Virus record (IMG/VR): IMGVR_UViG_3300013902_000003
Span: 1 to 48,611 of that record
Reading direction: 5' to 3' (one strand)
DNA length: 48,611 nt
DNA from: a virus
Each line of letters begins with the position of its first letter. Position 1 is the stretch's first letter. The position numbers were made by a program, and so were the translations under genes. The notes beneath the pieces are model-generated. The model saw nothing but the letters and a program-made list of their open reading frames with translations. It was not told the origin of the DNA and made no database searches. Positions 7,848 to 26,564 of this stretch are shown piece by piece.

Positions 7848-10445
7848 ATGAAAGCACCTACAGCAGATTATTCACCACTCTCACAAGCATTGAACGCAAA
7901 GACTAGCGCTATTCAAGCGTCATACTCCACTAAAGATACAGCTAATTGGAAGAGCCGTTATAAAATCCAAACAGATAGTTTCAAATTACAGAAAAAAGCA
8001 CTAGAAAACCAAGAAAACCAAATCAACATTAATGGTATGACGGCTCTGGCCCAAGGATTAGATACTTTCGTAGAGGATTTGGTAGATTTTGTAAAGACAG
8101 GACAGGACAAGACAACACAAGAAGCAGAAGAGAAAGCAACCAATGCTTCTAACGATATAAACTTAACACTTAGGAATAACCCACAGTTTTCACAATCGTA
8201 TGAGGATAATGGAGTAATTTCTGTAGGCCTTACAGATGAAGGGAAGAGAGCTGTTAACGAGATTGTAGAATCTTATTTTCCTGAAGGGACAAAATACGGA
8301 TGGGGAATGGATGAAAGAATAAAAAAAGTAAAAGAACAGGTTCTTTCATCTGCCAACACATATGCGGGGGAAATAGCTACACAACGCACTCAAGATGAAG
8401 CTAACGCCGCATATAACAACAACATGAAGAATGCTTTACTTAGCGACTTACAATCAGGGGCAACCATTACAGCAAAAATCCCTGACGTATCGGCGGAAGG
8501 TGGATATAGAGAAGTAAAAGTCGGAGCAGGACAGGAAGCTCTTATTTCATCCAGAGAATCTTACATGGGTAAGGCGTGGGCAGATAATCAGAGACAAATT
8601 GCCTCCGCAGACTTAATCAATAAGCGTAGCGATTATCTTATCTCAGACGCTAGTACTAATTTTTCTAATGGTACTTACGTTACAGATTCTAGTAAGAGAG
8701 CAACTTTTGATTCTCTTGTAAAAACACAGGCGGAAGAATATACAGATGAAACACAGAAGCAAGCATTCTTAACTAGTGTTAAATCAGCAGAAACACAGGC
8801 TGTTACTACTTACTTTGATAATCAAGTTAAGACAATTCTTGACCAAGACTTAGATATCTATACTTCTCTTTCTAGTTTATATGATTCTCTAACAGACCCC
8901 AACGGGCAGTATTACTCTATCTTCTTTGATAAGGATGGCAAGCCTAATGCAAATATAGAGCCTTCAACCTATACAACAATTAAATCAAGTGTAAGTACAC
9001 AATTAAGCAAAATTGAAACTCTTAACGGTACAACAAATACACAAGCCGTGCAAAATGCATTCAGTGACCTCAACAACCAGTTCTCCATGGGGCAAATTAA
9101 TTCAACTACATATGGTGCGAAAGCTCAATCGATTATGGTAGGTATCTATGGCGATAATTGGATGTCAAATAGCGAAGCAGTAAATGTTTATAAAAATCAG
9201 ATTATGTCCCAACTTCCTGATGATTTAGCAAGCGATCCTCAAGTTGCCAACGGTATTAGTATTGCATATAACACAGCATTAGGAACGAACAATAAAGCTT
9301 ACAAAGATTTAGACGCAGCCCAAAAGGCTAAAGCCGATGTAATTTCAAAAGATTACATAGACAATGTTACAAATCTTATTCTAAACAACCCTGACCTTCT
9401 TAAAGACCCACTTAAGTTTAATCAGAAACTTACAGAACTCTCTTCTAAGTACACCTCAGAGTGGGCTGATATCGCATTTGGAACTAATAGCAAGGTAACA
9501 GTCGGAGATGCATTAAAGGGCACTGAGTTTGTAAGTAAGACTTTCGATAAGGTAGTCTCTTCTTATTCTACAGAACTTATGGAAGGCATCAACGAAAATG
9601 GGGTTCTTGATAGATCCTCTCTTTCTGAAGGTCTAATGCCTGGCGTTAATGAGGCACTTACAGACGCTATTTCGCAGGTTGCTCAATACGGTATTCAAGC
9701 TAAGGGTATGAATATCCTTGACCCTAAGGACGGAAAGATTCAGTTTGAAATAGATGAAAGTACAGGCAAGCCTAAGTTAGACAAGAAAGGGAATCTCATT
9801 CCTAAGGCTATTATTTGGACAACTGTTGATAGTGAAGGTAAGGTCGATACTATCGCCTATGAATTCTCTCTAGGAAATAAAGATGAAGCATGGGAAACAG
9901 GAACACAGGCAAAGGAAAGGGAAAAACAGGAAAAACTTATCGAAGAAGATAGGCCAAAGACAGAAGTCGAGGCTACAGTAAGAGACTATGTCAACGTAGA
10001 AGAGGATCCAATTCCTAGTGATGATAAAGACAAGGTTGAACGATTCTTGTGGGCAAATGTCGAAACAACGGCTGAATTAGATGAAGCTATTGAAACTCTA
10101 AATAAGCAACACGAGAAAGGTAAGTTTGCAAACGATCTCACGGATTCCAAAGAATATCAAGCATTTATTGATTCTGTAAAGTTTTCAGTAAAGGAGAAGC
10201 GAGGTTGGAATGAAACAACTCAAAAAGTAATTCCAAAAGACGACCATGATTACAGGTCCGACAACACACAAGCAACTCTATTAGAGAATGCAAATACAGT
10301 CGAAGAATTAAATACTCTTGTCGAGAAACTTAACAAGTTCCATGAAGAAGGAAAGTTCGCATCAGACATAACAGACCCTAAACAATATCAGGCATATATT
10401 GATTCACTAGTTTTCGCAGTTAAACAAAAGAAAGGATGGAAGTGA
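7848..10445 (+). CDS. Internal virion protein candidate (gp15 position) with a C-terminal tandem repeat
   Basis: 865 aa. It has two ~50-aa repeats: ...ELDEAIETLNKQHEKGKFANDLTDSKEYQAFIDSVKFSVKEKRGW and ...ELNTLVEKLNKFHEEGKFASDITDPKQYQAYIDSLVFAVKQKKGW. Confidence 0.4.
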   Translation: MKAPTADYSPLSQALNAKTSAIQASYSTKDTANWKSRYKIQTDSFKLQKKALENQENQININGMTALAQGLDTFVEDLVDFVKTGQDKTTQEAEEKATNASNDINLTLRNNPQFSQSYEDNGVISVGLTDEGKRAVNEIVESYFPEGTKYGWGMDERIKKVKEQVLSSANTYAGEIATQRTQDEANAAYNNNMKNALLSDLQSGATITAKIPDVSAEGGYREVKVGAGQEALISSRESYMGKAWADNQRQIASADLINKRSDYLISDASTNFSNGTYVTDSSKRATFDSLVKTQAEEYTDETQKQAFLTSVKSAETQAVTTYFDNQVKTILDQDLDIYTSLSSLYDSLTDPNGQYYSIFFDKDGKPNANIEPSTYTTIKSSVSTQLSKIETLNGTTNTQAVQNAFSDLNNQFSMGQINSTTYGAKAQSIMVGIYGDNWMSNSEAVNVYKNQIMSQLPDDLASDPQVANGISIAYNTALGTNNKAYKDLDAAQKAKADVISKDYIDNVTNLILNNPDLLKDPLKFNQKLTELSSKYTSEWADIAFGTNSKVTVGDALKGTEFVSKTFDKVVSSYSTELMEGINENGVLDRSSLSEGLMPGVNEALTDAISQVAQYGIQAKGMNILDPKDGKIQFEIDESTGKPKLDKKGNLIPKAIIWTTVDSEGKVDTIAYEFSLGNKDEAWETGTQAKEREKQEKLIEEDRPKTEVEATVRDYVNVEEDPIPSDDKDKVERFLWANVETTAELDEAIETLNKQHEKGKFANDLTDSKEYQAFIDSVKFSVKEKRGWNETTQKVIPKDDHDYRSDNTQATLLENANTVEELNTLVEKLNKFHEEGKFASDITDPKQYQAYIDSLVFAVKQKKGWK

Positions 10446-13400
10446 TGGCAAATAATATAAATACACTAGTATCATCAAATAACGGCGTCCAGTCAGGCGC
10501 AACAATTGTAGGAAGAAACAACGATAAAACTATTTCTAATCTCAATAAGGCTTCCTCTATTTATAGTGGGAGCTTTAGACAGAGGACAACACAAGCTTCC
10601 AATGAGTCTCTTAATAGAACTGCCTCTCTTTATAGTGGTTCTAGAAGAAGTATGTATGATGATAACAATAATACTTCAAACTCTTCAGCCGTCACACTTC
10701 CCGAACCTGATGAAAATTTATTCAATGAATTTATGGCTACTGTCGCTCCATACGTAAAGATGAGTGATGAAGAGAAGAACTATTACTATCAAATTTCTTC
10801 TTCTATTTCTGCTAACGGTGGAGACGCCTCAGTGTGGGCACAGGACTTCTTATCGACAAATGCTATTGCTAACGTCCTAGGAGTATCGAGAAGTGAAGTA
10901 AACCAAAATAGAAGTCAAATGCTTAATTATTACTTAGGTATTGAGGATGATAAGCCTTTAGACTTCACAACAGGTGCTACCCTTATTAACTCTATCAATC
11001 AAGGTCTGAGACAACAGGAGGAAGCCGGATTACAAGAAGACTTAATAAACCTCTATAAAAAAGGCTACGATGATAATTCTCCAGAAGTCCAACAGACGGT
11101 GAAGCAAATTCTCCAAAAAGAACAGGAGATGAGCTACTTTGAAGATAGCAATCCTAGAATGTGGACAACAGAGTGGGCGAAGAACTCTCTTTCACAGTTG
11201 GCATATATGGGAGTTGGTACTCTAACAGGAACGCTTGGTGGTGTTGTAGGTGGCCTTATTGGTAATACTGTCTTTGGTCTTGCAGGTGGAGTTAAAGGCT
11301 TTCAAATTGGTAGTGGCCTAGCACGATTCTTAACTTATGATAAGCAGTTCGAAGCATCGGCATTTTGGAATATGAAACAAGCCGGAGTATCTACAGAAAC
11401 GGCCCTTAAGTATAGCAATATAGACGGATTCATTAATGGCTTAAATGAAGCATTCCTAGACGTAGGCTATAGTCAAGTCATGGGAGGAGTCGGAAAGCTT
11501 GCAGGTGTAGCAGACTTAGGAGGAAAGATAGTTCCTACAATTGTTTCTAGAGTTGCTAAAGATGGAACACTTGCAGGGTGGTTAGGACGCTTATTGCTCT
11601 ATATGGGATTAGACGCAACAGGAGAGTTTGTACAGGAAAGTACACAGTCTCTTACTTCTAGCGCATTACAAGCTATAGCAGAAGCGACAGACGGCATGAA
11701 TTATTCTTCCTCAGTAAAAGAAGCTCTTTCATCAGCATGGGAAGAAGGTATTCAAGGTTTTGCAACAGGCTTATTCTTCTCGGGTTTTGGTTCTGGCATT
11801 AACGTTCTAGACATTAAAAAGACTTCTAAACTTAAGAATAACTCCCTTCATTCGTATTCACAGGAAGCCTATGTAAATAATCAAGAGAATAGAAACCTAG
11901 TCAAATCTCTTAAACTAGGAGGCTCTGAACTCTCAGAAGATAACGTCACAAATCTCTTAAAGAAGCTCTATGATTCAACTCAGAAGGTTAGAGATGATAT
12001 TAAGAATGGTATTCGTAAAGATTTATTTGAACAACTCAAAACTATAGACGGTTCTCTTAATGAAAATGTTCTTGATGGAGTAGATATCACAACAAATGAA
12101 ATCAAAGACGTGGACGGTAACGTTATCTCAGGAAAGAAGACCGAGGTAAAGAGAAAGAGCGATGGTTCTACATACTTTGTTGTTGATAAAGAAGAAGACG
12201 GAACAGAAGACGGCAAAGAACACTACACAATGCGAATTGCTAACCCTAATGTTGTAGGCTCAAGTAGACTAGGGGAGATATATGTAGACGCTAAGACTGC
12301 TGAATACAACAATGAGTTACTTAACGCCGTTAAGACATCTCCTAAAGCTCTCTCTATGGAGCAAGCCGGTGCAATCTCTTTCACATTAGACGGGGAGACT
12401 AAGACTCTTACTATTGAGAGTGTAAACGTACAGGATGATAACGCATCTCTCAAAGAACAGGCTATCAGAGACCTCATGAGTATGTACTCTGATTATTCTA
12501 TTGAGTGGAACAACAGAAGTCAGTCAGATAACGCTGTATTCTCTTCTATTGAAAGCTCTAATCCACGTAACACAAGTACAAATACATACGGTCTTAACTA
12601 TTCAGATAACTCTAAGACTACAGAAGAACAGAACGATAGAGCATATGTTCGTAGATGGCTAGGTTCTTCTTTCTCTGAAAATGCTAGTGAAAATGATTTT
12701 ATGGCAACAATCCTACAAGGGGCTGCCAAAGCTAGAGGTCTTAGTGGTCAAGAGTTTATAGAAAAGTACTTCACTGAAATCAGAGAGAGTGAGAACAAAG
12801 ACGCTAACGTAAAAGGCTATACAAAAACAAGCAGAGACGAACTCTCTAAGCAAGTCAAAGCAACAATCTATGCGGGAAAGAGTGCAGACCCAACAACATT
12901 TTTGCACGAGCTTAACCATGCAATTATTCTCATGGGAGACAATAGAAAAGAGTTTACCTCAATCTTTAATAAGGTTAAGGGAACTAAACAGTTCATGTCT
13001 TTCGTTAAAAAGAATATGGATATCTTAAGGTACGTTGTTGGAAAGACTGATGATAAGGGCGTATATGTTTTAGAGAATGGCAACTATGTTCTTGATGAAG
13101 CAAAATTACAATCTCTCTTCCAAGACGTTAACAATTGGACAAGAGATGACTTTGAGTTTGAAGCAAGGCTCTATGAAGCTTATATGCGTAGTGGACAGAC
13201 ATTAAACCCAACGCTTACAGGATTCTTTAGAAGAGTTGCTGAAACATTTAGACGTATTTATACAGCTCTTAGGAATGGTATCAGTTCTTCTAATCTCAAT
13301 GATGAAATAGTAGCTTACTTTGATAAGCTCTATGGTTACGATTCTTCAACAGGTACTACATCTGTATTAAATGATAGTGGAGAGTTGCATGATATCGGAG

Positions 13401-16400
13401 AGTTGAGACAAGAGAAAGATAGTAGAGATGAACTTACATTTGATGAAGAAGGTTTATTGAGATATCAAAGTGTAAGAAATTATTTATACAAAAAATTTGG
13501 TCTTCAGAAAAATGGAAATACAGAATTTCTTATTCACAACAAAGACCAAAACACTAACTACAGATTATCTAAAACAAGTTTAAATAAAATGCTTAGTAAG
13601 AAAGCAACAGATAAATCATACATAAATGGCTTCTCTACTTCAGAACATAACGAAGCTGTCTCAAACGTAAAAGAATTATTCGAAAATGCTATCTTAAAAA
13701 CAAGAGAAAGCGACAAAAAGAACAGTCCTGACATGAAGGACATTGAAAGATTTGAGGTCGATTTTTCTTATAATGGAGAAGAAAACAGACTTTATACTGC
13801 ATTATTTACTGCTAAAAGATATGCAGACTCTAGAGTTTCAAATGGACTTTACTCAATTGAGTTGGTGGGAATAAAAATAGCCCCATCAACCGGGGTGGAG
13901 AATTCAACAGTTGTTAAACTCAACCACATCAGGGGCTTTGACGAAGCAAACAATAACGTAAGCTTCAATGATAATATCGCACCTGATAGCAAATCTGTCA
14001 AGGGCGACGCCCTCACTCAAACTCAAGATGATATCTCAAATTTATCTGCTATCGAACAATTTGACGCAATAAAGAAACAATATTACGGCACAGATAAGTA
14101 CATGATTACCCCAAACGGCAAGGCAACAAACCTTACTGAGGAACAGTGGATACAGGTCAGAACTCCAAACTTTATCAGGTGGTTTGGTGATTGGATTAAT
14201 GACCCTGATAATGCAAGCAAAGTTGTTGATGAGAACGGGGAACCGAAATCTGTCAAACACGGTACGCCTAACAAGGACTTTGAATCTTTTGATTTGTCAA
14301 AAACAGGAAGTAATACAGATGCAGGTTGGTTAGGAAAAGGCTTCTATTTTTATGGTAATGCTGATGCCTATGCAAGCCAGTATGCAGGAAAAGACGGGAG
14401 AGTAATTGAGGCATTTCTTAACATTAGAGACCCTTACTATATAAGTGAATCAGAGAGAAGAAACCTTATAGAAAGTGACAGTCTTGAAGCGAGTGAAGAA
14501 TTTAGAGACGAACTAATTGATGAGGGTTATGACGGTGTTTTTTATAATGGCGACCTTGATGAAGAATGGACTACATTTAACCCTAACCAAATCAAATCAG
14601 CCACTGAGAACAATGGAGAGTTTAGTACTGAAAGCGACTCAATATTAAAGCAAACAGATGACCAACCTCAAAAAAGTTTAATAGGAGATTATTTTGTAAT
14701 AAGAACGCCAAAAGAGGAAGTTTCTTCTCTTTTAGAAAATGCAAGTAAAGATTCTTATATTCTTAACGGTGGAGAGCCATTTAGTCGAGAAAATTGGGAT
14801 AAGACCTTTAAAGATTTTAGTGCAGATACTACTATCGGAAAGGTATTCTTAGGACAACATCAGTATGAAAAATTAATCAATAAAGGAAGAACTCTTGATT
14901 GGACTTTAATAAAACCAACATTAGAAAACCCATCCGTGATTTTGGCTGAAACTGATGAAAATGGAAATGAGAATGGATGTTACGAATTCATAAAATCATT
15001 TAAAGAAAATGGTGAAACAAAATGGTTCTATTCAGTTATTGTAACAAAAAAGGACGCAGGACTTTTCTCTATCTCAAATAGAAGAACGCATAGAAAACAG
15101 ATTGAAAATAAGATGGTAAAATACCTGAGAGCTATAACTGCCTCCGAAATCTCGGAAGAACGTAGGAATAGTGTGCAGGAACACCCTCAGTCTACTGCCG
15201 TTCTCAATTATAATAATAATTTAGAACCTAGAATTGTCAAGGGTCTTGCTCGAACTCAAGTTTCAGAGAGTGCTAGCAATCAAGAAGAAACAACATTATT
15301 CCAAACAAGTACTCCATCAACCTTTGATAGTGAGATTGACAATTTAACATCAAATGATATAGGAAAGCCAAACGATACTATTGTATTTGCTACAAATACT
15401 CCGAAGGTTTTTACAGAATTAGGACTTCCTGACCTTTCTGTAGAAATGTATAAGGATAAATTAGCAAGGGGGTTATTTGATTCTCCAAATAAAAATCATG
15501 GACATAATGACACAATATCTCAAGATATAGTTAAAGAGATAAATAGAAAGTTTGCAGACCCTATAATGATTTTTGATTCAACAACTAAAGGTTCGATTGT
15601 TGCAGTTTATGATATTCCTCCGCAGCTTGTAAAAAAGAAATCGATAAATTTGATTATGGCAAGCATCGCAGAGAATACACAAAAACCAAATTCACTTATA
15701 GTCAACCTTATTACAAGTATGTATGGTAAGGACTCTGATTTTAGTTATATCAATTGGATTCAAAAAGGTCTTCTTAGATATATTGATGATAAAAAAGTAG
15801 GAGGACTAACTGTTAGGCTCCAATTGCCATCAGCTTTTCCTCCTACGAATAGTAACATACTCACAAAAACGGCTCTTGTCAACAAATATGGTAGTAGTGC
15901 TTTATTTCAAGTTGAAAAAAACACCCAATCCGACCTCAGCGACAAGCTTATGCAACTTGCTTATCACGGTTCACCTAACGAGATTATCGGAGAGCTTTCT
16001 ACTAAGTACATGGGGTCAGGAGAAGGAGTACAGATTCACGGATGGGGATTGTACTTTGCACAAGACGAGAATATTTCAAAAGAGAGATATATATCGAGAT
16101 TAGCAGAACTCAAGGATGAGGATATTCTTTCATTTGATGGAAAAGAAATAACAATTTCAGACTATGTTAATACCTTTCCTCTTATGGAAATGGCGTCGTC
16201 TTGGTATGAATGGAAAAAAGAATTATACAATTCTCTAATAGATAATGTAAAAAGAAATGATATAATCGAAAGAGAAACAAACGCCATAAAAAACGAGATA
16301 AAAGGATACGAGAAACAAATACATCTTCTCAGAACAATATTAGATAATCCTTCGGACGATGAAGCTAGAAAAGAATTAGACGATATTCCTACGGGTGAAG

Positions 16401-19400
16401 ACGCAAGAAGAACAATTATAGATAACGAAAATTGGATAACGATATATAATCAAAGTTTAAATCTCTTATCTCAAATTCAAAAAAATCCTGAAAAACTAAG
16501 TTTGTCTAATCCCACAAGGCCCTCTCTGTTTATCAATGGTGAAGAAATTAAGCCTTCCACTGATAGTGCAATAGCGGAACTATACGGAACAATAATTGAT
16601 TATTCTCTTGAAAATAACCTTATAAAAAAACCTGAAGGAGAAGTCTCATTTTCTTCAGGACTTAATCGCAAGTTAGAAGACAAATACTATCAAGAATACT
16701 TTAAGACGCTTTTTGACGAAGGAAAACTTATTCCAATGATTGAAGGGATGTCTAACTCTCCAATAAGTGATAGCTTTAACATAGAAGATGTTCTTGACGT
16801 AGCTAAGAGTATTAACAGCGTTGAAGTTTACGCCCCCACATATGGCTCTCTCTTAACTGTCGATATTCCTGAAAATGAAGTTCTTCTTGATGAAGAGAAG
16901 AGATTCTCTAATCAATCTGAATTTGTTCAAAAAGCAATTAAGAGACTTTTTGCTAACGAGTTTGGAATGGACTTTAACGAGAATTGGAGAGGTGAAGGAA
17001 TATATAGTGCGATACAACAACAAATTGCTAAAAAGCTCCAATCCCCTGAAGATTTACCTAAGCAAGCATCCTTAATGCTAGCTAAGTACGGAGTCGAAGG
17101 AATTACATATGTCGGTGAGACAGACGGTCGTTGTTTCGTCATTTTTACAGATGAAGCTATTAAGAAGGTCGATTCTAGACTCTATCAGATAGGCGACTCC
17201 GAATGGACAGAGACTGCTAAGCGTATCGCTTATGAAGCATCAAGCCTTGAAGACTTCTTCAAAAAGTATAGGGAACAAGTTGAAGACGGAAACATAGAGC
17301 TAGACGACGCCAACGTTTCACAACTCTTAACAAGTATCTATGATGAAGCCGAATCAGAAGCATATGATCCGACTATAGAAGGATACTTTGACGAAGAAGA
17401 GAGTAGCTCTATTGTTGATGAAGATTGGTCAGTTGAAGAAGTTGAGAGCCCTACAGAAGAAGAGAGTATGGCATCGCCTTCAACAACTACTTCTATGTCA
17501 GATGAAGTTCCTGATTGGTTCGACCTTACAGAAGAAGAAATAGCATCTTTAAATAAGGACGCCGAGACAACAGAAAAAAATACACAAGAATTAGAAAAGA
17601 ATATCTCAGATATTCAGAAAGTCGTTGTAGACGCAGACCTACCTAAAGGCTTATCTCTAGACCATTCTAGAAGCCTTGATACTTCTTCTCACGCAAGAGC
17701 TATCGAATTTGCTAACATTCTCAAAGGTAGTAAGGAAGCCACAATCGAGTTTTTAAAGGCCCTTAGAGAAGTTAATAATGAGTTCTTCTATAATAATGGA
17801 GCTGAATATAACGAGGCCGTAAACGAAGAGAGTTATCAAGCAAAGACTATAAGAGAGTCGGCATTTAATAACTTCAAGAATATGAGTAAGTTCATTCAGA
17901 ACCTAGTCTATGAGAGTAGAGGAAGTCAGTACCGTAATCTAGATAAGATTACAGATAGAGCATGGAAAATTGTAGCCGGTCAAGTCAGTGCTAATCCTGA
18001 TGTTTATATGGACCTTTATTCTAGAGCATCTGGTAATACATCTTGGTCAGGAGAGAACTCTATCGAAGCAAGAGTCTTATCTGAAATTGGTTTAACAGAA
18101 AGAGATTGGAATAATCTCTCATACTCTAAGAGAAAAGAATACATCCAATACATTGAAGACAAAGACATAAGAAAGAAAATCCTTACAGGAGACGTTAAAG
18201 ACATTGATTTAAGAGGATATATCGAACGCACAGAAAAGAGGGCAGAGGCGGCACTTAGTGAAGCAAAAGCACTTGAAGAGAGTCAGAAGTACATCATAGA
18301 CGAGAATAAGAAGACTATTCTCAAACTAGGTAATGAATCTCAAAACTATCAGAAACAACTATTAGAGATAGAGAAAGAGAAGAACGAAATACAAGAAAAG
18401 TTAGAACGCAATGTTAAGAGCATGGAGAATAAGCTTAAGTCATCTAATATGGATACATCTAACACTCTTGTACATGCCGATTTACTCAAGAAAATGACTG
18501 AGCTTAATAGAAGAGAAGCACAGTATCAGAAAGCTCTCAAAATGTGGCAGAAAGGTTCAAGCACAGTTACACAAGAAGATTTAACTAGAATCAAGGGATT
18601 AATCGAAGACGCTAGAGCCAAAATTGAAGAGCTACAGAAAGCCGAAGAGATTACACCAGAAGAAGCTATCAAGAGATTACAGAGTCTTTATAACGCATGG
18701 AAAGACGCTAAGACTAAAGAGACTATCGATAAGCTAAAAGATAAGTACAATGTCAGATTATCAAACCTCAGACAGACTAAAAACGAAGCTATCGTTGAGA
18801 CAAGAAAACGCTACATGGAAATCATGAAAGAGCGAGAGACTCTTAGACGTATTAGAAGTGAGAAAGAGAGACTTATTAAGCAAATCATGAAAGCACCTAG
18901 TGCGAATATTGCAAGAGAAGAAGCAAGACAGATTAAAGCATTGCAACTCTTAATTGACCCTGCATTTAGAAGAGGTACTATAAAAGCCCTTGACGGTAAG
19001 GTTTATACAGTGGCAGAACTCAAAGCTATGCTTACAAAAAATAGTGATGATCCAGTTATTCAGACTTTAACAGAAAGACAGATAGAGCGCCTTACTAAGA
19101 CTTCTCTTGACGAGATGACTCTAAGCGAAGTTGAAGACACATATCGCTATATAAAGCACCTTAGAGAGGAAGGACTCAATAAGAGAAGAAGTGAAATTAT
19201 TCAAAGGAAGGCAGAGACTCAGATTATCTATAATGAGTTAACTAACGCTCTCATGGAAAGTAAGAACTTTGCTGACTATGGTTTTGAAGGTACAGAAGAT
19301 AAGAAGAACAGACTCAATACTAAGTCAGGTAAAGTAAGGAATGCATGGTATCAGACTCTCAATATGGCAAGAAAGGCTCAAATTCTTGATAACAATGAGA

Positions 19401-21400
19401 AGGGAACTTTCTATAACTTGCTTATTAGAAAGAAGAGAACACTTCAAGCAGAGGAGATGAAAGCATTGTCTAAGAGAGCTAACCTCATACAGGATACGAT
19501 TAAGGCTAATAATATAGATACAGACTCTCTTTATAAGACATGGACTATGAACCTTGAGGATGGTAGGACAGTAACATTTACGACTAGTGAACTAGCTTAT
19601 ATCTATCTCAGTCAGTACTGTCAAGAAAACAGGGAAGCTTTGGCGTATGGTACATTTGTATCAATTGACGAAAAGAGTACATTCCAAAAGGGTGCTGATA
19701 GTGTGATTATCGGTCAAGGCAAATCTCTTATTGAAGCAAGAGAAAACAAGGTCAATGATGATATAAGACAACTAGGAGACTGGAGATATAACGAGGCTCT
19801 GTCACTTGCAAAAACAGTCATTGAGGGCGACAAAGGTATCTACAATCTAGTTAAAGCAATTGAAAGCGACTTTAATAGTTCTGACTTCCAAAGAGTTATT
19901 GACCTTACAAGAAAGATTTATAATGTTGATATTAAGAAGGAAGATTATTACCTTCCACTTAATCGAACAGACTTCTTAGGCAAAGACCCTGGGGAAGATA
20001 TTAAGAATGATCTATTAAATACAGTACCTGGAACTAGAGGTGTAGTAGACAAAGGCTTTACAAAAGAAAGAAACAAGACAATATCACCACTGCATCAGAA
20101 AGCTATTAAATATGATTTATTTAAGGTATGGACTGAATCCGTAAAGAAACAAGAGCACTTTATAGCAATGCAAGAATACATTAATCAGCTTAACTCTCTC
20201 TTTGTGGATGGAGATAAAGCTAAACTGTTGCGTTCTAGAATTGAGAATACATACGGTAAAACAATGCTTGATAACCTTGACGAGTATATTAAAGAAGTAG
20301 CTAACCCAGACGCAGGAGCACTACAACAAGACCCTGCTAAAGATATTCTTAATGCCGCCAAAGGAAATATTTACGCAGCTTATCTAGGGTTCAAGTTGTC
20401 ATCTATTACTAATCAGCTGATAACGTCCCCTGCAGCATTCCTAGGTAAAGTATCACCAATAAGACTAGCTAGCAATCTTCTACAGATGATAGTTCATTAC
20501 AAAGATATAAGTGAAAAAGTATTTGAGCTCTCTCCATTTATGAAGAGTAGAAACTTTGACCTTATAGCAGGCGAGATTAAAGAGAGTGCAGAGAATCTAG
20601 GTTTAAGCAAAGCACAAAGAGGATGGAATAAGGTCTTAGAGTTTGGACTTAAAGGCTTAGAGTTTGCTGACCAATTTAGCGTAGTTGCAGGTTGGAAAGC
20701 AATCTTTGACCAAGAATTAGAGAGACTAGGAGGGGAGACAGAAGAGAATATCAGAACAGCATCTGCAATTGCTGATGAATACGTTTATGAAACACAGCCT
20801 TTGAGTGATAAGTCAGAGATAGCACCACTATTTAAGAATAAGAGTGCCTTTACAAATATCATGTTGCAGTTCCAAACATCATTAAACGTTGTATGGAATA
20901 ACCTAGCTTATGATACAGTACAAGACTTTAGAAAAAAGAATTGGAGAAAAGCTGTAGGAACGGTAGTAGGTTATGCAATGGCAGGCTCATTACTAGCTCT
21001 AGCACATGGAGAATTTAAGCCTGATGATGACGATGACGAAGACGAGAAGTTAAAGAAGTTCTGGATGAAGTTTGGATACTCTGTATTATCTCAAGGAGTT
21101 GAAAGTATTCCTATCTTCTCTAATGTTGTAGATCCTATCTTTAAGTATATCGTTACGGATGAAAAGCCTAGTTATACAAGCAATATGATTACTCCATTCC
21201 CATTTATTGCTAACGCCTCAGAAGCAACAAAGTACACAGTACAGGCTATAAGAGAGAAAGATACAGAAGCTCTTACTAAAGCACTAGACAAAGGAGCAGA
21301 CGCATTTATGCTAGCTCTAGGCTTACCATACTCAGGGCTTAGAGAGCTTCAAGCAATACAGGATGTAGGTATTCAGGCGCTCATAGGAGAGAGAAAGTAA
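10436..21400 (+). CDS. Giant multi-domain ('polyvalent') internal/ejected virion protein (gp16 position), 3654 aa
   Basis: Single uninterrupted ORF. It contains Gly-zipper hydrophobic segments, an HELNH zincin motif, two HG[TS]P...GW.G.G.YF modules, an acidic tract, a long K/E coiled coil and C-terminal hydrophobic segments. Confidence 0.7.
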   Translation: MEVMANNINTLVSSNNGVQSGATIVGRNNDKTISNLNKASSIYSGSFRQRTTQASNESLNRTASLYSGSRRSMYDDNNNTSNSSAVTLPEPDENLFNEFMATVAPYVKMSDEEKNYYYQISSSISANGGDASVWAQDFLSTNAIANVLGVSRSEVNQNRSQMLNYYLGIEDDKPLDFTTGATLINSINQGLRQQEEAGLQEDLINLYKKGYDDNSPEVQQTVKQILQKEQEMSYFEDSNPRMWTTEWAKNSLSQLAYMGVGTLTGTLGGVVGGLIGNTVFGLAGGVKGFQIGSGLARFLTYDKQFEASAFWNMKQAGVSTETALKYSNIDGFINGLNEAFLDVGYSQVMGGVGKLAGVADLGGKIVPTIVSRVAKDGTLAGWLGRLLLYMGLDATGEFVQESTQSLTSSALQAIAEATDGMNYSSSVKEALSSAWEEGIQGFATGLFFSGFGSGINVLDIKKTSKLKNNSLHSYSQEAYVNNQENRNLVKSLKLGGSELSEDNVTNLLKKLYDSTQKVRDDIKNGIRKDLFEQLKTIDGSLNENVLDGVDITTNEIKDVDGNVISGKKTEVKRKSDGSTYFVVDKEEDGTEDGKEHYTMRIANPNVVGSSRLGEIYVDAKTAEYNNELLNAVKTSPKALSMEQAGAISFTLDGETKTLTIESVNVQDDNASLKEQAIRDLMSMYSDYSIEWNNRSQSDNAVFSSIESSNPRNTSTNTYGLNYSDNSKTTEEQNDRAYVRRWLGSSFSENASENDFMATILQGAAKARGLSGQEFIEKYFTEIRESENKDANVKGYTKTSRDELSKQVKATIYAGKSADPTTFLHELNHAIILMGDNRKEFTSIFNKVKGTKQFMSFVKKNMDILRYVVGKTDDKGVYVLENGNYVLDEAKLQSLFQDVNNWTRDDFEFEARLYEAYMRSGQTLNPTLTGFFRRVAETFRRIYTALRNGISSSNLNDEIVAYFDKLYGYDSSTGTTSVLNDSGELHDIGELRQEKDSRDELTFDEEGLLRYQSVRNYLYKKFGLQKNGNTEFLIHNKDQNTNYRLSKTSLNKMLSKKATDKSYINGFSTSEHNEAVSNVKELFENAILKTRESDKKNSPDMKDIERFEVDFSYNGEENRLYTALFTAKRYADSRVSNGLYSIELVGIKIAPSTGVENSTVVKLNHIRGFDEANNNVSFNDNIAPDSKSVKGDALTQTQDDISNLSAIEQFDAIKKQYYGTDKYMITPNGKATNLTEEQWIQVRTPNFIRWFGDWINDPDNASKVVDENGEPKSVKHGTPNKDFESFDLSKTGSNTDAGWLGKGFYFYGNADAYASQYAGKDGRVIEAFLNIRDPYYISESERRNLIESDSLEASEEFRDELIDEGYDGVFYNGDLDEEWTTFNPNQIKSATENNGEFSTESDSILKQTDDQPQKSLIGDYFVIRTPKEEVSSLLENASKDSYILNGGEPFSRENWDKTFKDFSADTTIGKVFLGQHQYEKLINKGRTLDWTLIKPTLENPSVILAETDENGNENGCYEFIKSFKENGETKWFYSVIVTKKDAGLFSISNRRTHRKQIENKMVKYLRAITASEISEERRNSVQEHPQSTAVLNYNNNLEPRIVKGLARTQVSESASNQEETTLFQTSTPSTFDSEIDNLTSNDIGKPNDTIVFATNTPKVFTELGLPDLSVEMYKDKLARGLFDSPNKNHGHNDTISQDIVKEINRKFADPIMIFDSTTKGSIVAVYDIPPQLVKKKSINLIMASIAENTQKPNSLIVNLITSMYGKDSDFSYINWIQKGLLRYIDDKKVGGLTVRLQLPSAFPPTNSNILTKTALVNKYGSSALFQVEKNTQSDLSDKLMQLAYHGSPNEIIGELSTKYMGSGEGVQIHGWGLYFAQDENISKERYISRLAELKDEDILSFDGKEITISDYVNTFPLMEMASSWYEWKKELYNSLIDNVKRNDIIERETNAIKNEIKGYEKQIHLLRTILDNPSDDEARKELDDIPTGEDARRTIIDNENWITIYNQSLNLLSQIQKNPEKLSLSNPTRPSLFINGEEIKPSTDSAIAELYGTIIDYSLENNLIKKPEGEVSFSSGLNRKLEDKYYQEYFKTLFDEGKLIPMIEGMSNSPISDSFNIEDVLDVAKSINSVEVYAPTYGSLLTVDIPENEVLLDEEKRFSNQSEFVQKAIKRLFANEFGMDFNENWRGEGIYSAIQQQIAKKLQSPEDLPKQASLMLAKYGVEGITYVGETDGRCFVIFTDEAIKKVDSRLYQIGDSEWTETAKRIAYEASSLEDFFKKYREQVEDGNIELDDANVSQLLTSIYDEAESEAYDPTIEGYFDEEESSSIVDEDWSVEEVESPTEEESMASPSTTTSMSDEVPDWFDLTEEEIASLNKDAETTEKNTQELEKNISDIQKVVVDADLPKGLSLDHSRSLDTSSHARAIEFANILKGSKEATIEFLKALREVNNEFFYNNGAEYNEAVNEESYQAKTIRESAFNNFKNMSKFIQNLVYESRGSQYRNLDKITDRAWKIVAGQVSANPDVYMDLYSRASGNTSWSGENSIEARVLSEIGLTERDWNNLSYSKRKEYIQYIEDKDIRKKILTGDVKDIDLRGYIERTEKRAEAALSEAKALEESQKYIIDENKKTILKLGNESQNYQKQLLEIEKEKNEIQEKLERNVKSMENKLKSSNMDTSNTLVHADLLKKMTELNRREAQYQKALKMWQKGSSTVTQEDLTRIKGLIEDARAKIEELQKAEEITPEEAIKRLQSLYNAWKDAKTKETIDKLKDKYNVRLSNLRQTKNEAIVETRKRYMEIMKERETLRRIRSEKERLIKQIMKAPSANIAREEARQIKALQLLIDPAFRRGTIKALDGKVYTVAELKAMLTKNSDDPVIQTLTERQIERLTKTSLDEMTLSEVEDTYRYIKHLREEGLNKRRSEIIQRKAETQIIYNELTNALMESKNFADYGFEGTEDKKNRLNTKSGKVRNAWYQTLNMARKAQILDNNEKGTFYNLLIRKKRTLQAEEMKALSKRANLIQDTIKANNIDTDSLYKTWTMNLEDGRTVTFTTSELAYIYLSQYCQENREALAYGTFVSIDEKSTFQKGADSVIIGQGKSLIEARENKVNDDIRQLGDWRYNEALSLAKTVIEGDKGIYNLVKAIESDFNSSDFQRVIDLTRKIYNVDIKKEDYYLPLNRTDFLGKDPGEDIKNDLLNTVPGTRGVVDKGFTKERNKTISPLHQKAIKYDLFKVWTESVKKQEHFIAMQEYINQLNSLFVDGDKAKLLRSRIENTYGKTMLDNLDEYIKEVANPDAGALQQDPAKDILNAAKGNIYAAYLGFKLSSITNQLITSPAAFLGKVSPIRLASNLLQMIVHYKDISEKVFELSPFMKSRNFDLIAGEIKESAENLGLSKAQRGWNKVLEFGLKGLEFADQFSVVAGWKAIFDQELERLGGETEENIRTASAIADEYVYETQPLSDKSEIAPLFKNKSAFTNIMLQFQTSLNVVWNNLAYDTVQDFRKKNWRKAVGTVVGYAMAGSLLALAHGEFKPDDDDDEDEKLKKFWMKFGYSVLSQGVESIPIFSNVVDPIFKYIVTDEKPSYTSNMITPFPFIANASEATKYTVQAIREKDTEALTKALDKGADAFMLALGLPYSGLRELQAIQDVGIQALIGERK
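12905..12919 (+). other. HExxH zinc-metallopeptidase motif (HELNH, residue 824) inside the giant ORF
   Basis: cac gag ctt aac cat is read in frame. Confidence 0.6.
14258..14630 (+). other. ART-like polyvalent-protein module 1 (HGTPNKDF...GWLGKGFYFYG...DGVFYNG...NPNQIKSATENNGEF)
   Basis: Motif pattern recalled from ADP-ribosyltransferase-like domains of phage/ICE polyvalent proteins; not searched. Confidence 0.45.
15958..17170 (+). other. Divergent second copy of the same module (AYHGSPNEI...GWGLYFAQ ... GVEGITYVGETDGRCFVIF), split by a helical insert
   Basis: The N- and C-terminal motifs are shared with module 1. Confidence 0.4.
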
Positions 21401-24921: not shown

Positions 24922-26133
24922 ATGAAGACGAATAAACCTTATCGCTTCAATGTTAGAACAGGCAGGAACATTGAAGTTATTTTTTCTATAATGCCTAATA
25001 AGAGAATCAGTACAGGGACTAGAGACATGGTAGAAGCGATTAAGTTCGCTGATCACTACTTAGCAATGCTAGGACAAGAAATAGAAGAAGTTCCTCTTTT
25101 TAAAGATTTTGCGAAAGACTTTTTCATTCGTGAAGACAAAGAATCTTTAAGATACAGACACAAGCAATTTAGAAGAGAAAATAGGGAAGGTTGGTATAAA
25201 AGAAATCAGTGGTACTTAGATAAATATATCATGCCTCATTTTGCCCATTTTCCTTTAAATACCATTACACAAGTCATGATCGAAAACTGGATGGTATCGA
25301 TGAAAGGGTTAACCAAGAAGAATCTGTCAGGAAATTCTATTAAGAAGACATTACAGGCATTGAGAGAAATATTAGATGACGCCGTGAGATACTCATATAT
25401 CAAAACAAATCCCGCACGAGGAGTTCTCATTCCTGCTGATATTAAAGTTTTTGAGCGCCGTCCCCTTTCTCTGTCAGAACAAAGAATCCTTTTCCCAAAT
25501 GAAAAAAAAGAAAGATTAAAAGTATGGGGGACTATCCTTTATGCTGCATATTTCTCAGTCATGTACGACACCGGATTTAGACCAGCTGAAGTTCAGGGAC
25601 TAAGAGTTTGTGATGTATACACAACACCTCAAGGACTAGGAGTATTTACATCTCACACTATTTGTTCCGAAGAGCATAAGGCAAAGAATAGAGTCAAAAC
25701 AAGTGGAAAAGGAATGGAGAGTCGGGTAGGATTACTTACTACTGTTACTGCTGACCTATTATTAAAGATGATTAAAGACGCTCACTTAAAGGATGACGAC
25801 TATCTCTTCCTATCAGATAGAGCGAAAAAAGACTCATGGATAAAAGGAGCAACAGCGAATAAGAAGCTTAGGAATACTTGCAACAAGTATGGTTTAGAAT
25901 CGGATATCACACAGTATTGTCTCAGACACACATACGCAACATATCGCCGTGGCAACATGGATGAAGCAACGCTTGCTCTCTCTATGGGACACAGTGGAGG
26001 AAGAGTCAGGAACGATTACGACCACAGAACAGCATCTATTCTTTTAGCACAGTTAGAAAAGAGCAGAGACGCTATATTCTCAGATGATGATAAAGAAGAA
26101 GAGATTAAGCCACTTAAGGAGAAGAGAGGATAA
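24922..26133 (+). CDS. int: Tyrosine recombinase / phage integrase
   Basis: Catalytic signature TGFRPAEV...LRHTYATY...GHSGG...NDYDH (R, H-x-x-R, H, Y). 403 aa. Confidence 0.9.
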   Translation: MKTNKPYRFNVRTGRNIEVIFSIMPNKRISTGTRDMVEAIKFADHYLAMLGQEIEEVPLFKDFAKDFFIREDKESLRYRHKQFRRENREGWYKRNQWYLDKYIMPHFAHFPLNTITQVMIENWMVSMKGLTKKNLSGNSIKKTLQALREILDDAVRYSYIKTNPARGVLIPADIKVFERRPLSLSEQRILFPNEKKERLKVWGTILYAAYFSVMYDTGFRPAEVQGLRVCDVYTTPQGLGVFTSHTICSEEHKAKNRVKTSGKGMESRVGLLTTVTADLLLKMIKDAHLKDDDYLFLSDRAKKDSWIKGATANKKLRNTCNKYGLESDITQYCLRHTYATYRRGNMDEATLALSMGHSGGRVRNDYDHRTASILLAQLEKSRDAIFSDDDKEEEIKPLKEKRG

Positions 26134-26138
26134 ATAAA

Positions 26139-26564
26139 ATGAATAATGATGAGGAGAAATTATATAAACAACTTTTAGATAAGTCTCAAGAAGCTTTTAT
26201 TATGTCAATTGAGATTTACAATAAACCTACAATTAAGTACAGGGTTGAGAGTTTTTCTTTTTTAATCTGCAATGCTTGGGAACTTATGTTAAAAGCCAAA
26301 ATAATAAAAGACGAAGGAGAACAGGCGATATATTTTAAAGACAATCTTGAAAGGACAAAATCTCTTTCGTGGTGTGTTAAACATGTTTTTACAAATGACA
26401 TGACACCTCTTAGGAAAAACCTAGAGGAGATAATTGAACTTAGAGACTTAAGTACACACTTTATTACGCAAGAATATGAACTTATATACGTTCCTCTCTT
26501 TCAATCGTGTGTAAACAATTACACGAACAAGATGATTGATTTTCACTCCATTGAATTGATATAA
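26139..26564 (+). CDS. DUF3644-like protein, N-terminal fragment (possibly the 5' part of a frameshifted gene)
   Basis: EAFIMSIEIYNKPTIKYRVESFSFLICNAWELMLKAKII matches the recalled DUF3644 signature. The adjacent frame is open from 26555. Confidence 0.45.
   Translation: MNNDEEKLYKQLLDKSQEAFIMSIEIYNKPTIKYRVESFSFLICNAWELMLKAKIIKDEGEQAIYFKDNLERTKSLSWCVKHVFTNDMTPLRKNLEEIIELRDLSTHFITQEYELIYVPLFQSCVNNYTNKMIDFHSIELI

Follow-up and report, generated by a model that had tools for sequence, protein, structure and literature searches.

A 3,654-residue polyvalent protein as the probable cargo-bearing ejection protein of a temperate gut podovirus

Introduction

The gp50 protein of phage N4 is ejected and acts inside the cell, and its end domains serve injection and encapsidation. 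It is a virion RNA polymerase embedded in a homologue of the internal virion protein IVP-D, with the IVP-D-like domain at its C-terminus (PMC4819975), and the same work by Hardies et al. (2016), in which internal virion proteins hosting cytoplasm-destined domains were published, lists Bbp10 of Bordetella phage BPP-1 (2,052 aa) as a homologue of T7 IVP-D/gp16 (Table 2 of that paper). The gp16-like proteins that have been reviewed span 609-1,337 aa (PMC8954989). Polyvalent proteins were published by Iyer, Burroughs, Anand, de Souza and Aravind in 2017 (PMC5512222), who proposed autoprocessing for the zincins of these proteins and for whom the MuF_C domain is a PBECR-type predicted RNase, distinct from the MuF head-morphogenesis domain; a later survey reported ADP-ribosyltransferases (ARTs) in only 3% of podoviruses (PMC9503650). 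Giant virion proteins of this general kind include JC1 gp69 (4,515 aa, encoded by 22.1% of its genome and represented by 51 peptides in virions; PMC9144972) and gp47 of the Stx phage phi24B (2,811 aa), which carries LPD and MuF-C domains and was found in virions by mass spectrometry (bioRxiv 10.64898/2026.04.10.717836).

Here we analyse a giant gene in an uncultured viral genome (IMG/VR record IMGVR_UViG_3300013902_000003). We consider it probable, at roughly 65%, that the encoded protein, built of a frame and a delivered cargo, is the largest of the internal virion (ejection) proteins in a temperate gut podovirus of the BPP-1/epsilon15 type.

Results

The giant gene closes a conserved run of structural genes

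The window, that is, the whole stretch of 48,611 nt that was analysed, holds a complete genome (48.5 kb), and 22.6% of the window is occupied by one gene (Table 1), which starts with ATG, runs without interruption and encodes a protein of 413 kDa with a pI of 5.0. Because independent metagenome assemblies carry orthologues of equal size (3,653 aa in P0014 and 3,622 aa in P0015), the ORF is not an assembly artefact. By BLASTP, the P0014 orthologue is 85.6% identical to the giant protein overall, and 93-100% identical except in three short stretches. A preliminary description of this DNA had reported the ORF and put its share of the genome at 22%, in agreement with these values, and all motif positions that it gave match those recomputed on the protein: HELNH (H824), HGTP (residue 1275), GWLGKGFYFYG (1297), NPNQIK... 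(1382), HGHND (1688), HGSP (1844), GWGLYFA (1869) and ITYVGETDGRCFVIF (2223).

The assignment to a temperate podovirus in the same description is likewise borne out. An integrase is encoded, which indicates a temperate lifestyle; the genome has a T7-type portal (PF12236) and tail-tube genes, and its annotation (Pfam/PHROGs) showed neither tail-length nor sheath genes. With a major capsid protein of family PF20911 encoded upstream and tail proteins that fall in other PHROGs than T7 gp11 and gp12, the phage is, judged by sequence, BPP-1/epsilon15-like in its structural module and not T7-like in the narrow sense.

The order of genes is major capsid protein, two tail proteins (phrog_394 and phrog_376), a 220-aa protein, an 865-aa protein and the giant, which is the last gene of the capsid, tail and internal protein run. 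In tblastn searches, the second tail protein matches BPP-1 Bbp13, the 'tail tubular B' protein of HTVC203P and BcepC6B gp12. The 220-aa protein has no match in Pfam, PHROGs, NCBIfam or PDB, nor to T7 gp14, and a protein of the same size occupies this slot in relatives; the 865-aa protein has no detectable similarity to T7 gp15 or to any protein searched. The order gp14-gp15-gp16 after the tail tube, which had been proposed on the model of T7, stands as an order of slots; sequence likeness of the two smaller proteins to gp14 and gp15 was not found. The third slot after the tail-tube genes is kept in P0014, the nearest relative, where the gene order is the same, in the distant family members L021 and L022, and in phages MD07, DC33 and BPP-1.

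This fixed slot across distant relatives bears on whether the giant is packaged at all. As an unpackaged protein, it would be a late cytoplasmic multi-enzyme (for anti-defence, host shut-off or superinfection exclusion) whose gene ends the structural operon, and the occurrence of some stand-alone genes for the C-terminal piece (1,141-1,346 aa) where few or no structural genes are recognisable is compatible with such a role. We regard it as improbable, given that the start of the giant gene overlaps the 3' end of the preceding 865-aa slot gene by 10 nt, that mass spectrometry has detected analogously placed giants in virions (PMC9144972; phi24B preprint), and that a string of cytoplasmic enzymes would need no conserved non-enzymatic sequence of ~2,000 aa.

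Table 1. Positions of the giant gene, its parts and other genes in the window, with the basis of each assignment
Feature	Residues	Nucleotides	Strand	Basis
Tail tube protein A-like	206 aa	4356..4976	+	phrog_394 'tail protein' E 4.6e-24; MD07 tail protein E 8e-16
Tail tube protein B-like	737 aa	4969..7182	+	phrog_376 E 4.4e-68
First internal-virion-protein slot	220 aa	7184..7846	+	assigned on position and size only
Second internal-virion-protein slot	865 aa	7848..10445	+	assigned on position and size only
Giant gene	3,654 aa	10436..21400	+	
Conserved N-terminal piece	~150-620	10883..12295	+	family BLAST coverage, HMM, hydropathy
Gly-rich hydrophobic segments	258-286	11207-11293	+	hydropathy
Small alpha/beta sub-domain	~626-707	12311..12556	+	AlphaFold model; weak resemblance to partial GNAT core
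CLCA_X-type zincin	~790-970	12803..13345 (HELNH 12905-12919)	+	conservation, HMM
LPD3	1032-1118	13529..13789	+	PF18798, E 6.9e-10, 39.6 bits (gathering score 27)
ART-PolyVal ADP-ribosyltransferase	1265-1396	14228..14623	+	PF18760, E 3.8e-21, 76.8 bits (gathering score 31.2)
PBECR2 predicted RNase, marginal	1457-1563	14804..15124	+	PF18810
MuF_C (PBECR-type)	1685-1788	15488..15799	+	PF18819, E 2.4e-15, 56.9 bits (gathering score 27.6)
Second ART-PolyVal-like module	1838-2240	15947..17155	+	divergent; split by ~240-aa insert, residues ~1900-2135
Acidic tract	2281-2380	17276..17575	+	34 D/E vs 1 K/R
Conserved C-terminal piece (~1,000 aa)	~2500-3654	17933..21397	+	family search, AlphaFold, Bbp10 homology
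TM-like helix, then poly-Asp	3506-3540	20951-21055	+	hydropathy; hydrophobic helix 3506-3524
Tyrosine integrase		24922..26133	+	PF00589 E 2.4e-12, PF13102 E 2.6e-7

Conserved end pieces enclose a variable middle

The giant belongs to a family of 896 clusters (50% identity; E ≤ 1e-3), mostly of 2,000-4,400 aa, in which the C-terminal domain always holds that position. Among 149 representatives, residues 650-950 and 2500-3654 are widely kept, whereas fewer than 8 have kept residues 1000-1200, 1450-1800 or 1900-2450. The N-terminal piece is covered by BLAST in 33-69 of the 149 per 50-aa window (~60-69 beyond residue 250), and its HMM matches the N-terminus of the MD07 protein (E 5.8e-31). Family members separate the zincin from the C-terminal piece by spacers of 327-2,634 aa, and the cargo of 12 relatives comprises ART-PolyVal (10), LPD23 (4), GP88 (3) and DUF3990 (3), in addition to PBECR3/5/1, RadC and GGDEF. 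Comparison of close relatives shows the same turnover: the LPD3 of the giant is swapped for a divergent allele (17-22% identity) in P0014, and the order of PBECR2 and MuF_C is reversed in P0015. A three-part build, with a conserved N-terminal piece, a variable cargo and a conserved C-terminal piece, is thus shared by hundreds of relatives, and cargo cassettes are exchanged between near-identical phages.

In the N-terminal piece, Gly-rich hydrophobic segments are found where the preliminary description had seen them (near residues 255-300). For the small alpha/beta sub-domain that follows, Foldseek gives probabilities of 0.9-0.99 but E values of 0.4-1 over 70-90 columns. The C-terminal piece is all-helical in the AlphaFold model, at moderate confidence (pLDDT 67), and the C-terminal hydrophobic segments expected there correspond to one hydrophobic helix. 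A K/E coiled coil had also been proposed (nt ~18230-19000). Long charged helices are indeed present, since residues 2599-2855 are 39% charged and the modelled helices reach up to 77 residues; heptad regularity is only moderate, and the coiled coil itself was not upheld. Searching the fold of the C-terminal piece against BFVD returned 74 matches, all from giant polyvalent proteins, the matched regions being terminal parts of giant viral proteins that carry the names PolyVal ART, LPD, Nuclease or MuF_C; no match was found in PDB.

The cargo consists of predicted effector domains

Pfam was run on the whole protein and on 450-aa tiles, a check of the kind that the preliminary description had proposed, and it identified LPD3, ART-PolyVal and MuF_C, the last two at the HGTP and HGHND motifs from which an HGTP module and a MuF-C-like segment had been read. 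Where a segment had been likened to nucleases (nt ~14790-15120), we find a candidate PBECR2 domain, which agrees in position and has a marginal score: 21.8 bits in the whole protein and 27.7 bits (E 3.4e-6) on a 450-aa tile, against a gathering score of 27.1. Across 43 copies of the first ART module in the family, H1275 and D1366 are conserved at 95%; in the giant, Y1304, as read from the sequence, lies within GFYF.

The second, split module (HGSP...GWGLYFA) of the giant has no direct Pfam match, either in the whole protein or in the tiles. It has a family of homologues, in which an insert of variable length occurs at the same place, and in a set of 13 scanned sequences (the giant's own non-matching copy and 12 homologues) 9 match PF18760. 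Aligned by hhalign, this family and that of the first module match with 92.8% probability (E 4e-7) over the N-terminal half. These comparisons agree with the proposal of a second module and suggest, at the level of sequence, a divergent ART-PolyVal relative with a variable insert. It keeps H1844 and Y1873; its activity is uncertain, because the Asp conserved in the first module is replaced by Glu or Lys. The acidic tract that follows is present as described (nt ~17340-17540), with slightly wider limits, and is kept in very few family members. By domain content (LPD3, ART-PolyVal, PBECR2, MuF_C, the second ART-like module and the zincin), the giant is thus predicted, as had been suggested, to be polyvalent by the definition of Iyer et al. 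(PMC5512222).

The domain content also bears on two other identities. An N4-like virion RNA polymerase or a DarB-like anti-restriction protein (methylase and SNF2 helicase) would fit the length of 3,654 aa, which is close to that of N4 gp50 (3,500 aa) and Bcep22 gp75 (4,602 aa), and the relative MD07 carries a methyltransferase. However, no RNA polymerase, methylase or helicase domain was found in the giant (Pfam, NCBIfam), nor a PDB fold match; comparison of its conserved pieces with N4 gp50 gave no significant match (best hhalign 24%, in the N-terminal region), and the HMMs of the N-terminal piece, the zincin and the C-terminal piece have no match to Bcep22 gp75 (E ≥ 0.14). The domain content refutes both identities, and we give them next to no weight.

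Whether the cargo leaves the particle is a separate matter. The giant could be packaged as an internal core or DNA-spooling component that is not delivered, with its enzymes acting in the capsid or periplasm or surviving as relics; moving a chain of 413 kDa through a short tail channel is demanding, and the C-terminal piece is modelled as a large helical bundle. Such a protein seems even less probable than an unpackaged one. ART and PBECR domains depend on NAD+ and on RNA or protein targets, none of which occur outside the cytoplasm; the catalytic residues H1275 and D1366 are conserved; the rapid turnover of the cargo points to interaction with the host; and N4 gp50, published as a polymerase embedded in an IVP-D homologue (PMC4819975), offers a precedent for delivery.

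A conserved zincin precedes the cargo

The HELNH motif at H824, from which a zincin had been predicted, belongs to a domain that is homologous to the zincin of Bbp10 (HMM match to Bbp10 residues 761-932, E 1.5e-28). Across 12 diverse giants, HExxH and two Glu residues downstream of it never vary; in an 18-sequence alignment, the same holds for HExxH and one downstream Glu. Of 119 long representatives, 112 have the zincin, and its N-terminal position is fixed. Residues 700-1000 of Bbp10 are a seed of CLCA_X, the sister family of the self-cleaving CLCA_N proteases (PMC3650047). Another CLCA_X seed is a protein of Spirochaeta coccoides (PMC3650047), which fits the spirochaete relatives found in this analysis.

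By analogy with the self-cleaving CLCA proteases, the likeliest function of the zincin may be to cut its own chain and so free the cargo, for which we put the chances at somewhat under even. A competing possibility, which we hold to be unlikely though well worth weighing, is that it hydrolyses peptidoglycan peptides in place of the T7 gp16 transglycosylase and opens the cell wall for the conduit, with no cutting of the chain. Searches of the three slot proteins for a peptidoglycan hydrolase domain found none (Pfam, PHROGs, NCBIfam), which leaves the need for a muralytic activity unmet; the zincin sits in a conserved piece, not in the variable cargo; and the phi24B authors propose such a role for the gp47 metallopeptidase (bioRxiv 10.64898/2026.04.10.717836). 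Against this, BPP-1 has both a zincin (Bbp10) and a separate transglycosylase (Bbp11), so that the one is no simple substitute for the other, no fold match to M15/M23-type wall peptidases was seen with Foldseek, the nearest characterised relatives, CLCA_N proteases, cleave themselves (PMC3650047), and autoprocessing was proposed for polyvalent zincins (PMC5512222).

Both end pieces are homologous to Bbp10

The C-terminal piece, like the zincin, is homologous to BPP-1 Bbp10 (HMM E 1e-25; hhalign 98.9%), and both conserved pieces are in this way connected by sequence homology to one protein of a cultivable phage. Direct comparisons with other ejection proteins were negative. In the comparisons with T7 gp16 and epsilon15 gp17, the best BLASTP E value was 1.5, the HMM E value 0.28, and the hhalign probabilities 0.45% and 0.2%; the giant has no similarity to epsilon15 gp15-17 (E > 0.05), and the C-terminal piece none in sequence, profile or fold to T7 gp16, epsilon15 gp15-17, N4 gp50 or Bcep22 gp75. 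The IVP-D placement of Bbp10 by Hardies et al. was not reproduced by our own profile and fold comparisons. Because the direct comparisons are negative, the link to the ejectosome rests on synteny and one published remote-homology table. The proposed fusion of effectors to the ejection machinery is accordingly supported indirectly, through Bbp10 homology and the slot, and found no support in direct comparison with T7 gp16, epsilon15 or N4.

Discussion

The reading that we favour can be set out as follows. In a short-tailed, temperate phage of the human gut, the N-terminal frame (residues ~150-1000), in which a Gly-rich hydrophobic region is joined by an intact zincin of the CLCA_X type, and the C-terminal frame (residues ~2500-3654), all-helical and ending in a membrane-like helix and poly-Asp, would bring the protein into the procapsid core and then out through the tail, and by analogy with T7 gp16 may help to build a conduit across the envelope. 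The cargo between them (residues ~1000-2450: LPD3, ART-PolyVal, PBECR2, MuF_C, the second ART-like module and the acidic tract) would enter the cytoplasm with the leading DNA, where it could ADP-ribosylate host proteins and cut host RNAs, and so blunt defence or take over the cell.

More tentatively, and with distinctly less than even confidence, the end pieces may be a dedicated protein-injection chassis that is common among BPP-1/epsilon15-type podoviruses (50%-identity clusters numbering at least 896), whose cargo is swapped by recombination on very short timescales and whose zincin frees the effectors after delivery. If so, phages would have their own equivalent of polymorphic toxin or MARTX-type delivery, with Bbp10 of the cultivable BPP-1 as a short-cargo experimental model. 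Under the favoured reading itself, enzymes riding on an ejection protein would not be confined to N4, H66, Bcep22 and Stx phages: a very large lineage of temperate podoviruses, mostly uncultured and with human-gut phages among its members, would have them as a rule. Near-identical phages that differ only in cargo cassettes form the pattern that an arms race with host defences would be expected to leave. With Bbp10 as a member, the tractable BPP-1 offers a way to test the packaging signal, the route of ejection and what the zincin does. In principle, the frame might also be used to bring proteins of choice into bacteria.

Among known systems, BPP-1 shares with this phage a temperate podovirus lifestyle, the capsid and portal families and the order of the slot (tube A, tube B, ~230 aa, ~720 aa, giant). 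It differs in that Bbp10 has only ~300 aa between the zincin and the C-terminal piece, compared with ~1,500-1,700 aa of enzymatic cargo in the giant, and in that its second slot protein, Bbp11, carries a transglycosylase, none being seen in the corresponding protein here. We know of no ART, PBECR or LPD matches in Bbp10. The zincin shares with the CLCA_N/CLCA_X families of Lenart et al. (2013) the HExxH motif and the Bbp10 seed matched by its HMM; its own motif, HELNHAIILMGD, with Asp at +7 and not +4, departs from the CLCA_X consensus HExxHxxxD (PMC3650047), and the protease activity of the phage members is putative. T7 gp16 resembles the giant as the third and largest internal-protein gene after the tail-tube genes, as a largely alpha-helical protein, and in that the giant has hydrophobic segments suited to membrane insertion. 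The giant is, however, 2.8 times larger, falls in a different PHROG, and has no lytic transglycosylase (SLT/lysozyme in Pfam, PHROGs, NCBIfam) of the kind found at the N-terminus of T7-type gp16. N4 gp50 is likewise a giant protein whose enzymatic middle part is bound for the cytoplasm, its cargo being an RNA polymerase in place of ART and RNase modules.

The giants Bcep22 gp75, JC1 gp69 and phi24B gp47 (2,811-4,602 aa) are also multidomain proteins that end the structural module of temperate podoviruses, are preceded by proteins of ~200 aa and ~500 aa, and take up ~22% of the genome. Mass spectrometry places them in virions (PMC9144972; bioRxiv 10.64898/2026.04.10.717836). Their cargo is methylase/helicase (DarB-like) as opposed to ART/PBECR, the conserved frames differ, and tblastn with the giant protein found neither the Bcep22/JC1 nor the phi24B phage group. 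The polyvalent proteins of Iyer et al. similarly unite unrelated effector domains in one chain encoded among virion genes; the part of their account drawn on here does not tie the chains to the podovirus gp16 slot and describes no conserved N- and C-terminal frame around variable cargo (PMC5512222). The principle of enzymes carried on an ejection protein has been in print since 2016-2017, and the giant is a well-supported further example of it; what is new here is the very large family, its build of frame plus cargo, and the place of Bbp10 in it as a short-cargo member.

A single intact gene for the giant protein

The giant protein is encoded by one unbroken ORF of 3,654 codons with an ATG start, which takes up 22.6% of the window and specifies a product of 413 kDa with a pI of 5.0 (table). 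Size, position and share of the genome agree with the preliminary description (3654 aa, about 22%), and each motif quoted there was found at the residue assigned to it. Because an exact 78-bp direct repeat occupies the two ends of the window, the assembly is complete, either circular or terminally redundant, and its unique part amounts to 48,533 bp. An assembly artefact as the source of the ORF was ruled out by same-sized orthologues in independent assemblies: the nearest relative, P0014 (3,653 aa), comes from a Hadza human-gut metagenome and has the same gene order as the window, and a second orthologue, P0015 (3,622 aa), has nine more members in its cluster. No near-identical DNA was found among GenBank phages. 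At the start of the gene (10436-10447), the first ATG abuts the purine run, whereas AAAGGA lies 7-8 nt ahead of the second ATG (Met4, at 10445); translation may actually begin at Met4, in which case the predicted product would have 3,651 aa. Three other identities for the giant were rejected, namely a virion RNA polymerase, a DarB-like protein and a tail fibre (tail-fibre-like genes lie elsewhere; table).

A conserved frame with a variable cargo

The giant is a conserved frame that carries fast-changing cargo. An exhaustive search of cluster representatives (50% identity) with residues 2700-3654 as the query gave 896 matching clusters at E ≤ 1 × 10−3 and 347 at E ≤ 1 × 10−30; family members are mostly 2,000-4,400 aa long, and the matched domain is C-terminal in every case. 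Comparison of the whole protein to 149 representatives by BLAST shows conserved blocks at residues ~150-1000 and ~2500-3654, with a poorly kept middle region (module 1, the ART-PolyVal domain, in ~50 representatives, the head of module 2 in ~30, and other stretches in fewer than 8). Of the 119 representatives that are 1,800 aa or longer, 112 have the zincin region at a fixed N-terminal position (median start 531), and between 327 and 2,634 aa (median 1,291) separate it from the C-terminal block. Among 12 relatives, the cargo includes ART-PolyVal in 10 and LPD23 in 4, along with GP88, DUF3990, PBECR1/3/5, RadC, LPD3, MuF_C and GGDEF domains. A published survey found ARTs in only 3% of sequenced podoviruses (PMC9503650), in contrast to 10 of these 12 relatives.

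Outside three stretches (table), P0014 is 93-100% identical to the window giant. It keeps its LPD3 match despite the divergence in that region, which shows that divergent alleles were swapped in; the three stretches represent replacement of alleles or cassettes within the cargo. P0015 has PBECR2 and MuF_C in reverse order relative to the window.

Two relatives have the giant split into two overlapping ORFs. In phage MD07 (OP947163), two CDS have 42 identical residues in common before the frameshift, and in locus L016 (3256-13144) a 2,255-aa polyvalent ORF overlaps a 1,047-aa ORF for the C-terminal piece by 23 nt; these broken giants may reflect sequencing errors, decay or programmed frameshifts. 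Limnohabitans phage DC33 (PQ492659), a 39-kb phage placed under Inoviridae in the GenBank taxonomy, encodes proteins homologous to the giant and to the tail-tube proteins of the window (blastp, HMM), and the Inoviridae label is probably a misclassification.

Features of the giant protein and of the surrounding window
Feature	Residues (aa)	Window position	Evidence or remark
Terminal direct repeat		1-78 and 48534-48611	exact, 78 bp
Portal			T7 gp8 family; PF12236
Major capsid protein		upstream of giant	PF20911
Tail protein, 206 aa		upstream of giant	phrog_394
Tail protein, 737 aa		upstream of giant	phrog_376; matches BPP-1 Bbp13, pelagiphage "tail tubular B", BcepC6B gp12
Giant ORF		10436-21400 (+)	
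Alpha/beta sub-domain before zincin	~626-707	12311-12556	small; conserved
Divergent stretch vs P0014	1001-1200	13436-14035	17-22% identity
LPD3	1032-1118		Pfam, whole protein, E 6.9 × 10−10
ART-PolyVal (module 1)	1265-1396		Pfam, whole protein, E 3.8 × 10−21
Divergent stretch vs P0014	1301-1400	14336-14635	40% identity
PBECR2	1457-1563		Pfam, 21.8 bits whole protein vs gathering score 27.1
MuF_C	1685-1788		Pfam, whole protein, E 2.4 × 10−15
Module 2	1838-2240		
Divergent stretch vs P0014	1901-2000	16136-16435	24% identity
Acidic tract	2281-2380		34 D/E vs 1 K/R
Charged helical stretch	2599-2855		
Hydrophobic helix directly before DDDDDEDE	3506-3540	20951-21055	membrane-like; conserved
Low-G+C region		26001-28000	G+C 0.316
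ORF strand flip to minus		27490-29013	
Terminase, ATPase half		36502-37476	PF03237; phrog_2 positions 264-472 of 807
ORFs behind terminase		37887-38258 and 38258-38767	no assignment
Next ORF		38982-39839	phrog_27743, unknown function
Tail-fibre-like genes		43549-45866	

Cargo domains

A Pfam search for effector domains, as the preliminary description had proposed, matched LPD3, ART-PolyVal and MuF_C, whereas PBECR2 was marginal, reaching 27.7 bits on a 450-aa tile, barely over its gathering score. NCBIfam gave no match. MuF_C is a predicted RNase of the PBECR type, distinct from the MuF head domain, according to Iyer et al. (PMC5512222). The acidic tract and the charged helical stretch that had been noticed earlier are both present.

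The second, split module of the window (HGSP...GWGLYFA; module 2) has no Pfam match of its own but has a clear family of homologues, whose alignment shows a block HG[ST]P...GSGEGxQxHGWGLYF, then a variable-length insert at a fixed place (~240 aa in the window protein, nearly missing in P0005), then LYEVDIPxNxVLLDE...GIKGITYxGxxDGRCFVVF. Since 9 of 13 sequences, made up of module 2 of the window and 12 homologues, match PF18760, and a module-1 profile of 43 copies aligns to the module-2 family (hhalign probability 92.8%, E 4 × 10−7), we regard module 2 as a predicted divergent relative of ART-PolyVal. Its ADP-ribosyltransferase activity is uncertain, because D1366 of module 1, at a position that is 95% Asp, corresponds to Glu or Lys in module 2.

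The conserved end-pieces

In the zincin, HExxH and two downstream Glu are invariant across 12 diverse giants, and an alignment of 18 sequences keeps HExxH and one of the downstream Glu without exception; the region was modelled with pLDDT 76. In fold comparison with the PDB, only the sub-domain that precedes it weakly resembles a known structure, a partial GNAT strand core (Foldseek probability 0.9-0.99, but E 0.4-1), and reading its sequence for the acetyl-CoA-binding motif of GNATs did not reveal one. Residues 700-1000 of Bbp10 of phage BPP-1 were used to seed the CLCA_X zincins, a sister family of the self-cleaving CLCA_N proteases (Lenart et al., PMC3650047). By analogy, we favour self-cleavage, by which the zincin would free the cargo. 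Digestion of wall peptides is kept as a second option for its role, against which stand this CLCA relationship and the fact that BPP-1 already has a separate transglycosylase (Bbp11) besides the zincin in Bbp10.

The C-terminal piece was modelled as all-helical (pLDDT 67). It had no match in the PDB by fold (best E 0.4) and nothing significant by sequence, but there were 74 matches in BFVD (top E 5.5 × 10−16). Each of the BFVD matches listed is a piece of a larger protein that had been split up, and the UniProt names, where there is one, are PolyVal ART, LPD, Nuclease, MuF_C, N-acetyltransferase or crystallin-motif protein. The hydrophobic helix and the DDDDDEDE that follows it are both kept in the family consensus. 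The C-terminal piece also exists outside the giant, since three loci (L017, L019 and L020) encode stand-alone proteins of 1,141-1,346 aa that consist of hardly more. Some of these stand-alone genes are flanked by opposite-strand genes without PHROG matches. Their reading as an "ancestral" form was set aside, as the genes exist but their contexts are not interpretable.

Gene neighbourhood, lifestyle and host

The preliminary description had likened the gene order to that of T7. The slot after the tail tube genes stands; however, gp11, gp12, gp14, gp15 and gp16 of T7 belong to PHROGs other than the window's, the 220-aa and 865-aa proteins upstream of the giant have no detectable relatives, and BLASTP gave no significant match to T7 gp14, gp15 or gp16. 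Because the T7 counterparts fall into different PHROGs, the structural module appears BPP-1/epsilon15-like rather than T7-like in the narrow sense. Distant members share the order portal, scaffold, capsid, ~130 aa, tube A, tube B, ~220-300 aa, 685-1,018 aa, giant, and the order tube A, tube B, small, medium, giant is also found in MD07, DC33 and BPP-1.

Genes for a tyrosine integrase and for YqaJ and RecT as a pair show that the phage is temperate. Immediately behind the integrase, G+C is low and the ORF strand flips to minus (table); this is probably a lysogeny-control or attachment region. The large terminase is apparently split, with only the ATPase half in its ORF, and the arrangement at 36502-39839 could reflect insertion of a mobile element or a terminase made by two genes; MD07 likewise has two CDS labelled 'terminase large subunit'. 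A gut spirochaete is a reasonable guess for the host, given the nearest relative from the Hadza gut, the only two GTDB genomes with (distant) relatives (Spirochaetaceae and Sphaerochaetaceae MAGs), a CLCA_X seed from Spirochaeta coccoides (PMC3650047) and a window G+C of 38%.

Relationship to ejection proteins and to known giants

Bbp10 (2,052 aa) has the same slot as the giant, behind Bbp12 (231 aa) and Bbp11 (720 aa), and matches both the C-terminal piece (HMM 1 × 10−25, hhalign 98.9%) and the zincin HMM (1.5 × 10−28, with HESGH at residue 797). It is listed as a homologue of IVP-D (T7 gp16) in the epsilon15 subgroup (Hardies et al. 2016, PMC4819975). No match was obtained between the C-terminal piece and T7 gp16 by hhalign, nor between a 148-sequence profile of this piece and an 8-sequence family of the T7 gp16 C-terminus, and HMM comparisons to T7 gp16, Bcep22 gp75, epsilon15 gp14-17 and N4 gp50 were not significant. 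A weak recurring spot at T7 gp16 residues ~1100-1154 (a hydrophobic helix) is below significance and probably compositional. As all direct comparisons failed, the putative IVP-D membership of the giant rests on synteny and the published Bbp10 table. In size, the family is far outside the 609-1,337 aa of reviewed gp16-like proteins (PMC8954989).

Building on the established domain content, frame-plus-cargo build, slot, cargo turnover and Bbp10 homology, we infer that the giant would be packaged in the capsid core and exit via the tail upon infection. The end-pieces would supply packaging and exit, perhaps also membrane insertion, and the cargo, once in the cytoplasm, would ADP-ribosylate host proteins and attack host RNAs through its PBECR nucleases. 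This picture gains support by analogy from two giants that mass spectrometry detected in virions: JC1 gp69 (4,515 aa, 22.1% of the genome), which follows two virion proteins, one of 196 aa and one of 510 aa (PMC9144972), and phi24B gp47 (2,811 aa, LPD and MuF-C domains), for which a role in ejection has been proposed (bioRxiv 10.64898/2026.04.10.717836).

The finding is useful and testable and unlikely to surprise a specialist: the concept is already published (Hardies 2016; Iyer 2017), and experiments have placed several giants in virions. Relative to published accounts, as far as the literature examined shows, the new elements are how large the family is, its explicit build of conserved frame and variable cargo with an invariant CLCA_X zincin, the replacement of cassettes between near-identical gut phages, and the recognition of Bbp10, from the cultivable phage BPP-1, as a relative with a short cargo.
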